Part shown: piece by piece, positions 19,158-22,429 of the stretch
Position numbering within the stretch: position 1 is the first letter of the stretch
How the letters are laid out: each line of letters starts with the position of its first letter
Source: Candidatus Thorarchaeota archaeon
Lineage (GTDB): Archaea > Asgardarchaeota > Thorarchaeia > Thorarchaeales > Thorarchaeaceae
Reading direction: 5' to 3'
Assembly: GCA_048882385.1 (NCBI GenBank)
Contig: JBHLRQ010000023.1
Span: forward strand, 1 to 37,270
DNA: 37,270 bases
Position numbers and translations under genes: made by a program
Notes under the pieces: model-generated
What the model was told of the DNA's origin: nothing
The model's database searches: none
Seen by the model: the letters and a program-made list of their open reading frames with translations, nothing else

Positions 19158-20084
19158 GTGGGCACTTGTTTGGATCTAGTGGACAAAACGATAATGATTG
19201 AGATTTCTTCTAATTGTCGAATCAGCTATGAGAATCTCTCACGGAAGACGGGTCTCAGTGCCAATGCTGTAAAAAATCGAGTAACTGCACTCTTGGAGAG
19301 TGGAGCAATATCACGTTTTGCAGTATCCCTGAACGCTGCAATGATCAATGCTTCATATTTCATGGCACTTGTGAATACTGATGGGACTGAGGATATTGAC
19401 AAATTCATAGGAAGAATAGGTGAAAATCCGATGATTGGTCATATCAGTCTTCTAGCCAGTGCTACTGGTGGAGCATACCTTGTATGGGGTCAGTACATAG
19501 GTTCATCTATGCTATCCAAATTGAGACGTTTTCTGCGCCAACACACAAAAGTTCGTAGTGTCGAACTTCATACCATCATATCTCCTGTTGGAAAAAAAGT
19601 AGAGCTAGCGAATCTACATCTTCGAATTCTTGCTGTTCTCAAGAATAATCCTCGAGCCATGATAAACGATATAGCTCAGGAAACTGGACTGGCACCAAAA
19701 ACTGTTCGACGAGCCATCCGTGAACTCATGGAAGATGGAGGTATCTATTTTTCTGCTAGGCCAGATATGGCTGCTGGAAAAATTGTTAATTTCTTTGTGC
19801 GCTTTGAGTATGATGAAGATCAAATCACTTTAGAAGAGGTCGTAAAGTGGTTGCAGGATCAATATCCTCTCGAGCTTTGGGATCCGACCCCTTCAGCTAC
19901 CGAACCAGTTTTCTTTGCTGAGTTTGTGGTTGAGTTTCTCCATGAGGCTGAGGAGATTGCTCGCCATATCCGCAGTAGGTCTTTTGTGAATTCCACAACA
20001 ACACTTGTCTGTTATTCGAGTAAGAAGTTCTCGTACCTTGCTGAAACTATGCTTGAAGACATGATTCATGATGCAGGATACTAG
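19158..20084 (+). CDS. Tandem Lrp/AsnC-type regulator
   Basis: NCRISYENLSRKTGLSANAVKNRV and NPRAMINDIAQETGLAPKTVRRAI, each followed by a RAM/ACT-like segment. Confidence 0.85.
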   Translation: MGTCLDLVDKTIMIEISSNCRISYENLSRKTGLSANAVKNRVTALLESGAISRFAVSLNAAMINASYFMALVNTDGTEDIDKFIGRIGENPMIGHISLLASATGGAYLVWGQYIGSSMLSKLRRFLRQHTKVRSVELHTIISPVGKKVELANLHLRILAVLKNNPRAMINDIAQETGLAPKTVRRAIRELMEDGGIYFSARPDMAAGKIVNFFVRFEYDEDQITLEEVVKWLQDQYPLELWDPTPSATEPVFFAEFVVEFLHEAEEIARHIRSRSFVNSTTTLVCYSSKKFSYLAETMLEDMIHDAGY

Positions 20085-21210
20085 AAGTAGGAGCGAGATC
20101 GTATTGACACCTGAAGAACCGTATCGATATGAGATGGGTCCAATAAGACCTCCTAGTGAAGCTACTAGTCTTCTTCTTCGAGTGACCCGTAATTGTCAAT
20201 GGAATCGGTGCTTATTCTGTCCGGTGTACAAGGAATCTGAATTCTCTGCACGTCCTGTCGACCATGTGTTACGTGATATCGATTTGATAAAACGCTATAC
20301 TGACTTCCTAGATAATCCGACTGATGATGTTCTGATTGAAGAGCCACTAGCGTACAACTCTGCGATTATGTGGAGTGGCAACAGAATGAAATCTGTATTC
20401 CTCCAAGATGCTGACTCATTGGTCATTGGTTCAGAAAACCTGTCTCTAATTTTGGAGCATCTGAAAGACAATTTTCCAAACATTGAGAGAGTCACAAGTT
20501 ATTCACGCTCTTCAACATTGAATAAAATGAGCGTTGATGACCTTGCTGCACTTCGAGAGTCGGGACTTTCAAGAATCCATGTTGGTCTTGAGTCAGGTTC
20601 TGATAATGTGCTCAAGATGGTTCGGAAAGGTGCTTCAAAGGCCATCCATATCCGAGCAGGAATGAAAGTAAAATCAGCAGGAATAGAGCTTTCAGAATAC
20701 TTCATGCCTGGTCTTGGAGGAAGAAAATTCTCCAAGGAGCATGCTTTAGAGTCTGCAGATGCATTGAATCAGATTGATCCAGACTTCATTCGACTTCGTC
20801 CCCTTGCATTCCCAATTCGAGCTCCCCTGTACGAGCTTATGATCTCTGGTGAATTTGATAGATGTAACGACGTTGATGTAGTAAAGGAACTGCATACTTT
20901 TGTAGCCAGTTTGGATGGAATCTCAAGCTATCTCGTGAGTGACCATATTCTTAATCTATTCGCTGATCTGAATGGAAAACTACCAGAGGACAAGAAATTC
21001 CTGATTGGGATACTGCAAAGATTTCTTGAATTGGGTGAAAGTGAACAACTTCTATATCGATTCGGAAGACGACTAGGAGCATTTTCAAGTCTGGATGATC
21101 TTTCTGATGGTTCCCGTATAGAAAAAGTAAACCACATTATGTTGGAGAATGGAGTCACTTCTCAGAATATTGACAGACTGATAGATCAGATGTCTCAGCG
21201 ATTCATCTGA
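20068..21210 (+). CDS. Radical SAM protein (no SPASM or B12 domain)
   Basis: CQWNRCLFC cluster motif, IRPPSEA, GLESGSD, SDHILN; true start may be slightly downstream. Confidence 0.9.
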   Translation: MMQDTRSRSEIVLTPEEPYRYEMGPIRPPSEATSLLLRVTRNCQWNRCLFCPVYKESEFSARPVDHVLRDIDLIKRYTDFLDNPTDDVLIEEPLAYNSAIMWSGNRMKSVFLQDADSLVIGSENLSLILEHLKDNFPNIERVTSYSRSSTLNKMSVDDLAALRESGLSRIHVGLESGSDNVLKMVRKGASKAIHIRAGMKVKSAGIELSEYFMPGLGGRKFSKEHALESADALNQIDPDFIRLRPLAFPIRAPLYELMISGEFDRCNDVDVVKELHTFVASLDGISSYLVSDHILNLFADLNGKLPEDKKFLIGILQRFLELGESEQLLYRFGRRLGAFSSLDDLSDGSRIEKVNHIMLENGVTSQNIDRLIDQMSQRFI

Positions 21211-21596
21211 TTCCATTTCCCTAAGCTCAGACTGCGTTTAAAGCCCCTGATATTGTTCAATCATTCCTATTTTCTCAGTCGCCTCTGTCCATGAAATAAT
21301 ATTCATTCTACTCATCTTATTGTATGTAGGTGTATAACAATGGCAAGTGAGAAAGGCACTGTCAAGAACTTGAGAAATCTCCCAAATAATAGACGCCGAG
21401 TTAGCATGTCTTATGTTTATCATAACCGCTTTGATAGGTAGATTAAATTTCTCTATATCCTCGAGTCGAAATCGGATGGAGTGAAGATCACCAATCTTCA
21501 CTCTATTCCATAACTGTTTTTCACCAAATCCCCGAAACCTCGGGTTCGTAGATCATGGATTTGTGTATCCAGAAGAAAATCAATCAAAATGAGTTT

Positions 21597-21632
21597 GAGG
21601 GAGGCCGTGTGCAGCTTCACGGCCAATCCCTC
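21597..21632 (-). terminator. Strong hairpin downstream of the two basic micropeptides
   Basis: Minus strand GAGGGA-TT-GGCCGTG-(8 nt)-CACGGCC-TCCCTC, followed by T-rich sequence. Confidence 0.6.
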
Positions 21633-21668
21633 TTGGTTACAGACTACACAATGGCTGAGTTCCGGTTT

Positions 21669-21764
21669 CTAATTTCTGTAAAGATAAGCATGAGCCAAGG
21701 CTTCAGTTGACTGAATCTTCTTAGCCTTGATTCTCTTCTTCTTGGTTGATTTTTCTATTGCCAT
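21669..21764 (-). CDS. Lys-rich micropeptide B (31 aa), not in ORF track
   Basis: MAIEKSTKKKRIKAKKIQSTEALAHAYLYRN; strong SD GGAGGT 8 nt before ATG. Confidence 0.65.
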   Translation of the reverse strand: MAIEKSTKKKRIKAKKIQSTEALAHAYLYRN

Positions 21765-21787
21765 TCATATTACCTCCATATTGTATC

Positions 21788-21886
21788 TCACTTTCCATCT
21801 GTGTAGTCTAGGTAAAGGGACCTCAGTGTCCTGAGTCCGCTTCCTCTCTTCTCGGAAAGCCTGTTGTTCTTCTTTTCTTCAGCCAT
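21788..21886 (-). CDS. Charged micropeptide A (32 aa), not in ORF track
   Basis: MAEEKKNNRLSEKRGSGLRTLRSLYLDYTDGK; purine-rich SD-like GGAGAGGATGTGA upstream; TATA-like CTTATATT near 21966-21973. Confidence 0.55.
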   Translation of the reverse strand: MAEEKKNNRLSEKRGSGLRTLRSLYLDYTDGK

Positions 21887-22072
21887 TGTGTTCACATCCT
21901 CTCCGAACCTCGGAGCATTTTCCACGACTCCCAACGTTCGTCTGTATTTGTATTACGTATTACATAATATAAGTATTTAGGTTACCTATTTTGTGATATA
22001 TAAATACATACTCAGAAACTGTGACGCAAGACATAAACAGATGAGTGAAATCCACTCCAATGTGGATGTAAG

Positions 22073-22429
22073 ATGGAGCGGTTTGAACGAGCCATGGGAA
22101 TGACACCAAAACAATGGAATGACAGTATGGTTGAGCGCACGTCAAACTGTAGATGCAAAGAATGTGCGACGTTCATCCGTGCAATCGATGAATCACAGAT
22201 GCACTACAAATCCATTGGCTGGGATGTATCAAAAGAATCTAGAGAATCGAAACTTGGTATACAGTTCTGTCACAGCGGAAAAAGTCCTCGAATCTCTGAA
22301 GAACGATCATGTTTATGCAAGGACTGTCCAGTGGCGCGTGAGATGTTCATAACTTATACTCATTATTGTATAAACGGAGATGCTCCATCTCGTATGGGAG
22401 CTCTCGCTGGAATGTCTGAAGAATTCTGA
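22073..22429 (+). CDS. DUF2769-like Cys-rich protein
   Basis: CxCxxC...FCxxGKS...CxCxxCPV...YCxxG pattern. Confidence 0.75.
   Translation: MERFERAMGMTPKQWNDSMVERTSNCRCKECATFIRAIDESQMHYKSIGWDVSKESRESKLGIQFCHSGKSPRISEERSCLCKDCPVAREMFITYTHYCINGDAPSRMGALAGMSEEF

Follow-up and report, generated by a model that had tools for sequence, protein, structure and literature searches.

The window analysed here is a stretch of 37,270 nucleotides from a Candidatus Thorarchaeota archaeon, the genome of which comprises 3.7 Mb in 256 contigs. Within the window, a radical SAM gene (20068-21210, +) is separated from a DUF2769 gene (22073-22429, +) by an 860-nt gap, which holds a minus-strand unit with two very short open reading frames, pepA and pepB. 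A first-pass annotation of this DNA had noted that the segment behind pepB is complementary both to the start of pepA and to a site inside pepA, and had proposed an RNA switch. The question raised by the locus is whether the 3′ end of an archaeal mRNA folds back onto the start codon of its first cistron and, if so, to what effect.

Read from 5′ to 3′, the unit comprises a TATA-like box, a near-palindrome, a hairpin, a Shine-Dalgarno motif and pepA, a second Shine-Dalgarno motif and pepB, a 36-nt 3′ segment and a terminal hairpin (Table 1). The TATA element, the peptides of 32 and 31 residues and the strong hairpin are all present as first annotated, with coordinates off by at most one base.

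Table 1. Features of the minus-strand micropeptide unit. Positions are those of the window.
Feature	Position	Strand	Basis
TATA-like box TTATATTA	21972-21965	-	sequence
16-nt near-palindrome TGTAATACGTAATACA	21964-21949	-	sequence
Conserved promoter block	21943-21989	-	81-91% identity in genus genomes; aligned
Hairpin in the 5′ UTR, with stems CGAAC/GTTCG (outer) and GGAG/CTCC (inner)	21904-21940	-	folding
pepA Shine-Dalgarno GGAGAGGA, GGAG-type	21897-21904	-	sequence
H1 5′ arm ACACAATGGCTGA, over the pepA start codon and first two codons	21879-21891	-	inverted repeat, covariation
pepA ORF, 32 aa plus stop, MAEEKKNNRLSEKRGSGLRTLRSLYLDYTDGK	21788-21886	-	ATG 21886, stop 21788
Hairpin within the pepA coding sequence, GGACTCAG ... 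CTGAGGTCC	21818-21838	-	folding
H2 5′ arm, AGACTACACA, bulged G, ATGG; last pepA codons	21795-21809	-	10-nt repeat
pepB Shine-Dalgarno GGAGGT	21772-21777	-	sequence
pepB ORF, 31 aa plus stop, MAIEKSTKKKRIKAKKIQSTEALAHAYLYRN	21669-21764	-	translation
3′ UTR anti-start element; H1 3′ arm 21658-21646, overlapping H2 3′ arm 21650-21641	21641-21658	-	
Terminal GC-rich hairpin GAGGGA-TT-GGCCGTG / CACGGCC-TCCCTC (21632-21597), then T run (21589-21586)	21586-21632	-	

The whole window gave no Rfam match at the gathering threshold and no tRNA, and 11 weak matches within 21150-22150 were all far below threshold. Identification of the unit as a riboswitch, sRNA or C/D box RNA was thus rejected for want of an Rfam family at the gathering threshold. 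A scan with bacterial promoter and terminator models, which do not apply to an archaeon, returned nothing useful. The only RNA run among 20 sequencing runs yielded one 151-nt contig (21898-22043, with 14 differences), which crosses the promoter and is silent on expression and transcript ends.

The 13-nt perfect complementarity between 21646-21658 and 21879-21891 is present as had been claimed, and is referred to below as helix H1. When 21200-22100 was subjected to 300 dinucleotide-preserving shuffles, a perfect inverted repeat of at least 13 nt was found in four, so the 13-mer is unusual. The 10-nt perfect complement between 21641-21650 and 21800-21809, part of a second pairing (H2), could also be verified; repeats of at least 10 nt occurred in 120 of the 300 shuffles, which places the 10-mer alone at chance level.

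Unguided RNAalifold prediction on 18 homologous units gave, as its main feature, a helix joining the start of pepA to the segment after pepB. In a set of 24 units from genomes and metagenome loci, between 9 and 14 of the 15 helix positions pair in every unit. Of the pepA AUG, the U and the G pair in each of the 24 units, and three units (L016, L037 and L107) leave the A unpaired. Overall, 74.9% of the alignment cells are paired, compared to 19-36% where the 3′ partner was slid by one to three columns. The covariation score of 0.177 (0.03-0.055 for the slid controls) was not reached in any of 500 column shuffles; since all sequences come from closely related members of one genus, these shuffle statistics overstate independence. 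Identity among the homologous units is 66-90%, and they are therefore not assembly copies of one sequence.

Compensatory double changes, counted by eye and without a tree, occur in at least three lineages. GCU/AGC, at an Ala codon, is replaced by ACU/AGU in L010, L011 and L015, and GCU/AGC by GUU/AAC in L016; GAU/AUC is replaced by AAU/AUU in L009. The change of GAU to GGU in L027 and L033 is tolerated as a G-U pair, and two A-to-G changes in the 3′ arm of L107 give U-G pairs. In the clade of the window the helix has slid 5 bp upstream (ACACA/UGUGU), with the AUG still covered. The ten core columns contain 11 G-U cells, each of which would turn into an A-C mismatch on the opposite strand; selection has thus acted on the sense RNA rather than on the DNA or an antisense transcript.

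The pairing is also specific in location. In all 18 units, pairing of the 3′ segment with the pepA initiation region outscores that of its shuffled versions (z −1.5 to −5.4, mean −3.2), at duplex energies of −20.7 to −36.0 kcal/mol; mean z-scores elsewhere in the mRNA were −1.15 to 0.0. Counted from the first base of the stop codon of pepB, the 3′ arm begins at 12 nt in 13 of the 18 units, at 11 nt in one, at 16 nt in three and at 18 nt in one. This spacing is mostly constant even though the length of pepB varies from 29 to 32 residues. The pepA Shine-Dalgarno motif lies mostly outside the core helix, and an extension of the helix that displaces the 5′ hairpin (3′ CAACC against GGTTG) is found in some units only.

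The first-pass annotation had named covariation in related genomes as one check on its proposal, and had held that reading frames and complementarities that are not conserved would indicate a chance duplication. For the start-codon helix, the pairing covaries and is kept in 24 of 24 units, and the reading frames are coding (see below). Its statement that the 3′ segment can mask the pepA start codon agrees with this conserved and covarying helix.

Two other identities for the paired region were rejected. A bulge-helix-bulge processing site consists of two 3-nt bulges on opposite strands with a 4-bp helix between them; by inspection, the helix here is continuous over 9-14 bp and its flanking internal loops are unequal (5 nt and 2 nt in L004). 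An antisense ORF that would start at the mirrored ATGGCTGA is 19 residues long in the window, 24 in L004 and 11 in L007, a variation in length that shows it not to be conserved.

Both pepA and pepB evolve as coding sequence, and their frames, lengths and Shine-Dalgarno motifs are kept among units. PepB has the consensus MALAKNxKxKLNxAKKAQSTEALAYAYLYRx, with strictly conserved amino acids and free third positions; in EALAYA, the entropy at the three Ala codons is 0 for positions 1 and 2 and 1.3-1.6 for position 3. For pepA (MADExxNNExFAxRGNGNPGLRTLDSLYYDYARIK), third-position variation likewise exceeds that of the first and second positions. There is extra third-position conservation near the internal pepA hairpin, a homologue of which is visible by eye in aligned units as GGGACTCA ... 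TGATTCCC. A GGAGG-type motif before pepA is conserved in all aligned units, and GGAGG before pepB is invariant in alignments A2 and A4. The comparison of units therefore shows a helix that is selected at the RNA level on the sense strand, two coding ORFs and a conserved spacing from the stop codon.

Both peptides are charged and hydrophilic. The sole hydrophobic or aromatic run, EALAYAYLY, has ∼9 residues and is too short for a membrane span, so the earlier remark that neither peptide is hydrophobic was correct; no membrane-spanning stretch is present in pepA or pepB. No family in Pfam, NCBIfam or PADLOC matched either peptide, a PDB sequence search returned nothing below E 0.1 and the ESM Atlas gave no usable match. 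Comparison of pepA with pepB by hhalign (E 0.42) gives no support for paralogy, and modelling of a complex of the two gave no verdict (score 0.02). The pepA frame is truncated in L019 and decayed in L014, with the 3′ element partly remaining in both; pepA can therefore be lost, and the element may have another role. In the subclade L009, L105, L106, L037 and L107 the pepA stop codon is itself lost, giving read-through peptides of 39-50 residues that overlap the pepB start or end 1 nt before it. In L108 the pepB start codon is CTG in place of ATG.

The helix is embedded in a conserved architecture. The 5′ UTR hairpin ends at the pepA Shine-Dalgarno motif, and its homologous stem is paired in 81.5% of cells, with four of seven pairs changed on both sides (alignment A2). 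Homologues of the two-part terminal stem are paired in 85-86% of cells, with both sides changed in 7 of 12 pairs; the terminal hairpin and the T run that follows are likely to form the end of the transcript and to protect its 3′ terminus. For the whole architecture (5′ hairpin, helix and terminal hairpin), 86.6% of cells are paired, against 36-42% in slid controls.

Upstream, other units carry TGTAATA-N-TATTACA where the window has the near-palindrome TGTAATACGTAATACA. Placed between the TATA box and the presumed start of transcription, the palindrome is likely to be an operator; we presume this assignment of promoter and operator in part from general archaeal promoter geometry. The promoter block occurs once in the genome of the window, in which a search for further copies found none. 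A 45-nt promoter block containing the TGTAATA-N-TATTACA palindrome (21949-21989) is very highly conserved. The same block stands upstream of an unrelated gene for a signal-peptide protein in L013 (G002:C27), which suggests a shared operator for a regulator. A second TATA-like element (TTTATATA on the minus strand, 21993-22010), kept in L003, precedes the divergent DUF2769 gene by ∼70 nt and is the likely plus-strand promoter of that gene.

On balance, we favour the reading that the unit is a bicistronic mRNA for two real micro-proteins, in which an anti-start element in the 3′ UTR folds back and gates pepA. The gating by the long-range helix is probably coupled to translation or termination of pepB. 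In the proposed mechanism, the element 12 nt behind the pepB stop codon would fold back over ∼220 nt onto the pepA start, forming a helix of 9-14 bp. The closed form would block initiation at pepA and leave the pepB ribosome-binding site free inside the loop, so that pepA would be made only when the helix is open. A 9-10 bp helix across a loop of 220 nt may have only marginal stability in vivo. The routes by which it would open are less certain than the block itself. The helix could be open co-transcriptionally, before the 3′ UTR exists; in the clade of the window, a decoy site among the last pepA codons could capture the element; or a ribosome terminating on pepB might reach or abut the helix. 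In bacterial ribosome profiling, the leading edge of a ribosome with a stop codon in the A site lies at about this 12-nt distance. By this bacterial geometry, a terminating ribosome would abut the helix or begin to open it.

A bolder version of this last route is a ‘reverse coupling’, in which the pepB stop codon lies one ribosome footprint from the paired pepA start and finishing ribosomes open the helix or are handed over to pepA. We regard it as a tentative and rather doubtful extension. If true, pepA would never be made without pepB, and the order and ratio of the two peptides would be fixed. A two-peptide stoichiometry would then be enforced through mRNA circularization in an Asgard archaeon, and the unit would provide the first comparative evidence of base-paired 5′-3′ closed-loop translation control in Archaea.

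We then considered the alternative pairing H2, which in the window has 14 bp with one bulged G and involves the last pepA codons. Folding of the transcript depends on the assumed 3′ end. The fold of 21560-21945 (MFE −107.9 kcal/mol, z −3.44) uses H2, and that of 21585-21945 (MFE −105.8 kcal/mol) has the 13-bp start-codon helix with pair probabilities of 0.79-0.99. Forcing H2 on the shorter RNA costs 4.6 kcal/mol (−101.2 kcal/mol) and leaves the terminal hairpin intact; H2 becomes the MFE structure when 25 more 3′ bases are included. The first-pass annotation had proposed that the competing pairing would disrupt the terminal hairpin, but the hairpin is not displaced in either folded state. H2 pairs at all 14 positions in the window, L100 and L101, at 10 of 14 in L102 and L003, and at seven or fewer in the other 19 units. 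Across the genus, 45.9% of its cells are paired, no better than the 24-48% of slid controls. Of the claimed competition inside pepA, what stands is therefore a pairing kept in the five sequences of the window’s clade, and genus-wide support for it was not found.

Attenuation by a leader peptide, which had also been brought up, does not fit the unit. In an attenuator, a leader ORF precedes the gene under control and shares sequence with hairpins that terminate or antiterminate in alternation; here the sole terminator comes downstream of the two ORFs, H2 does not displace it, and each peptide is a conserved protein and more than a mere leader.

That a distal 3′ segment can occlude a start site is textbook knowledge for the mRNAs of bacterial type I toxins and for RNA phages. 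The label ‘undescribed RNA switch’ given by the first-pass annotation was thus overstated, in that long-range start occlusion is a known principle; the covarying start-masking helix to which it was attached is real, and what is new is the archaeal setting and the geometry. We know of no archaeal mRNA with such a covariation-supported start-occluding helix, and a search of one library of open-access papers for such a helix, and for work on small proteins of Thorarchaeota, found neither. Asgard archaea are the closest prokaryotic relatives of eukaryotes, in which 5′-3′ communication is central to translation, and a short and testable base-paired closed loop is of interest here for that reason. 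In the coat-replicase ‘Min Jou’ interaction of the RNA phage MS2, a long-range helix masks one start and ribosomes on another cistron open it. There, the upstream cistron opens a downstream start, whereas here the candidate opener would be termination on the downstream pepB, acting on an upstream start over ∼220 nt. The start masking of MS2-type coupling is present in the unit; opening by pepB ribosomes is suggested only by the 12-nt spacing in 13 of 18 units.

The nearest bacterial likenesses are type I toxin mRNAs. As with the mRNA of hok/Sok (mok-hok) on Escherichia coli plasmid R1 (PMC9841398), the unit would give a short bicistronic mRNA with a 5′ hairpin, a long-distance 5′-3′ interaction that closes the full-length form to translation and a stable 3′ terminal hairpin. 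In the tac/fbi fold-back of hok, an upstream box sequesters the mok Shine-Dalgarno motif, and 3′ trimming relieves this; mok overlaps hok, the product is a hydrophobic membrane toxin and Sok is antisense. Here, two separate ORFs encode hydrophilic peptides, the pairing is on the start codon and the host is an archaeon. For aapA/IsoA of Helicobacter pylori, PMC6733600 describes a 5′-3′ interaction that traps the full-length mRNA in an inert form, with transient local hairpins proposed to act during transcription. An anti-SD masks the Shine-Dalgarno motif of that mRNA, which has a single toxic-peptide ORF and for which the antisense RNA is essential; the present unit has two ORFs and a paired start codon. 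In haloarchaea, translational regulation requires the two UTRs together, with its direction set by the 3′ UTR (Brenneis and Soppa 2009, PMC2636863). The abstract of that work describes reporter genetics on unrelated genes and organisms and mentions no base-paired helix or covariation.

The resemblance to hok and aapA raises the alternative that the unit is a type I toxin-antitoxin-like module, in which one peptide is harmful, the fold-back keeps the mRNA inert until 3′ trimming and an unseen antisense RNA neutralizes the active form. Short ORFs, a 5′ hairpin, a 5′-3′ interaction and a stable 3′ hairpin are shared with these mRNAs (PMC9841398, PMC6733600), the pepA AUG lies under a covarying 5′-3′ helix in 24 of 24 units, and the unit is accessory, being missing in G001, G024 and G041 and relocated in the clade of the window. 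Against this, neither peptide has a membrane-spanning hydrophobic stretch, and we do not claim membership of the class. No antisense promoter or RNA could be identified, the length of the antisense ORF at the 3′ arm differs among units, PADLOC, Pfam and NCBIfam gave no match, and pepB-like genes are housekeeping-like in number (2-9 per genome). We consider the module unlikely. It is also quite unlikely, in our estimation, that the helix serves mRNA stability only, clamping the 5′ and 3′ regions against exonucleases with no role in translation. The structured ends are strong and covary, and the extended, interrupted complementarity between the 3′ UTR and the 5′ region reaches the duplex energies given above, both of which a clamp would explain; a clamp would not require the pepB stop to lie at a fixed 12-nt distance, the true 5′ end already has a protective hairpin of its own, and the helix is always on the start codon even after the register shift.

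A switch between two states, with the 3′ element pairing by turns with the pepA start and with the site inside pepA (or with the terminal hairpin) as the regulatory principle, is very doubtful. In the clade of the window, H2 is kept through synonymous changes: of three substitutions in the pepA arm of L100 and L101, two give G-U pairs and one is part of an A-U to U-G change on both sides. The two states are only 4.6 kcal/mol apart in the window, and H2-type pairing scores z −2.9 there and −4.6 for L003. A local hairpin between the 3′ element and the last pepB codons (z ≤ −2) is formed in 6 of 18 other units, so a competing partner may recur in different guises. Set against this are the absence of genus-wide conservation of H2, the poor pairing in 19 of 24 units, a 10-nt repeat at chance level and a terminal hairpin whose invasion is not favoured; no ligand or signal is evident. 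Finally, it is barely credible that the repeat arose by chance or as a DNA-level inverted duplication (cruciform, protein-binding palindrome or mobile-element end) with no RNA function. The 13-mer of the window does repeat the start region together with five upstream bases, as a local duplication would, but a repeat of this length is rare among the shuffles, compensatory and G-U changes run across the 24 units, the unit is single copy in the genome, and the arm sequences differ between clades with complementarity kept.

The unit is a single-copy feature conserved within one genus of Thorarchaeota. At the DNA level, it has matches in 15 of 24 other genus genomes and in none of 16 outside the genus. 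A pepA profile finds exactly one copy both in the genome of the window and in 19 of 27 other genus genomes, with no match in 58 genomes from 15 other genera of the family. At 16 of 18 loci the unit lies within ∼1 kb, and on the same strand, of a conserved gene for a protein of ∼110 residues without a Pfam family; the context is a different one in the window and in L003, its nearest relative among genomes. Upstream of this gene, G001, G024 and G041 lack the unit, which is therefore an accessory and, as its relocation in the clade of the window shows, relocatable module. The ∼110-residue neighbour (L004:1938-2267 and homologues; G000) has its own TTTATA promoter and only a weak MreB-like_C match (E 0.004), and was not found in the genome of the window with the query used. 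In G008, one contig begins inside the 3′ UTR of the unit.

A reading of the peptides as RiPP precursors was rejected, since the radical SAM gene adjoins the unit only in the window and L003 and is not the neighbour at the 16 other loci. The encoded protein has 380 residues and no further domain match. A two-HTH regulator of the Lrp/AsnC type (307 residues, 19158-20084, +) overlaps its start by 17 nt, and from this arrangement the two are a possible regulator-enzyme pair, which converges on the micropeptide unit only in the clade of the window. Directly downstream of the unit is an 87-residue, GTG-start ORF (21238-21501, −) that has no family match and no homologue in L003 and may not be a gene; an 18-bp imperfect hairpin (21471-21511) is located at its start.

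The distribution of pepB is wider. A profile of its family matches all 28 genomes of the genus, with 2-9 matches each that are often tandem ORFs ∼100 nt apart, and 56 of 76 other genomes of the same archaeal family, but none of 224 genomes from 29 other families of the phylum. Thus, pepB belongs to an unannotated, multicopy family of small proteins that is restricted to one archaeal family and that this locus exposes. Only 12 representatives were present among 1.84 billion proteins, nameless or named ‘hypothetical protein’; for the most part, gene callers overlook this family.

Paralogous operons of two or three micro-ORFs are found in the genome of the window at C31:18507-18707 (−), C20:26386-26484 (+), C2:74819-74908 (+) and C19:4497-4583 (−). 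They are also present at loci L070-L083 and are conserved across the genus. The possibility that fold-back is general to the pepB family was rejected. The three-ORF operons (C31 and relatives) have no 3′ UTR spacer and end in a terminator that overlaps the last ORF, ORF3, which shows that fold-back is not general. ORF1 of the paralogous operons has 33-35 residues, starts with MALxx or MAFxx and has an aromatic-rich tail such as YAYQFRR or YAYLTMR. ORF2 (29-37 residues) has the form MA[LI]AK...ISTDAITHSYxYR in C31-type operons, unlike in C20, and ORF3 (37-38 residues) ends in ...EVLLWEAT, or ...EVLALEAT in C20. In several of these operons, the codons for the C-terminal Arg-Arg and the stop (AGG AGG TAA) serve at the same time as the Shine-Dalgarno motif of the next ORF.
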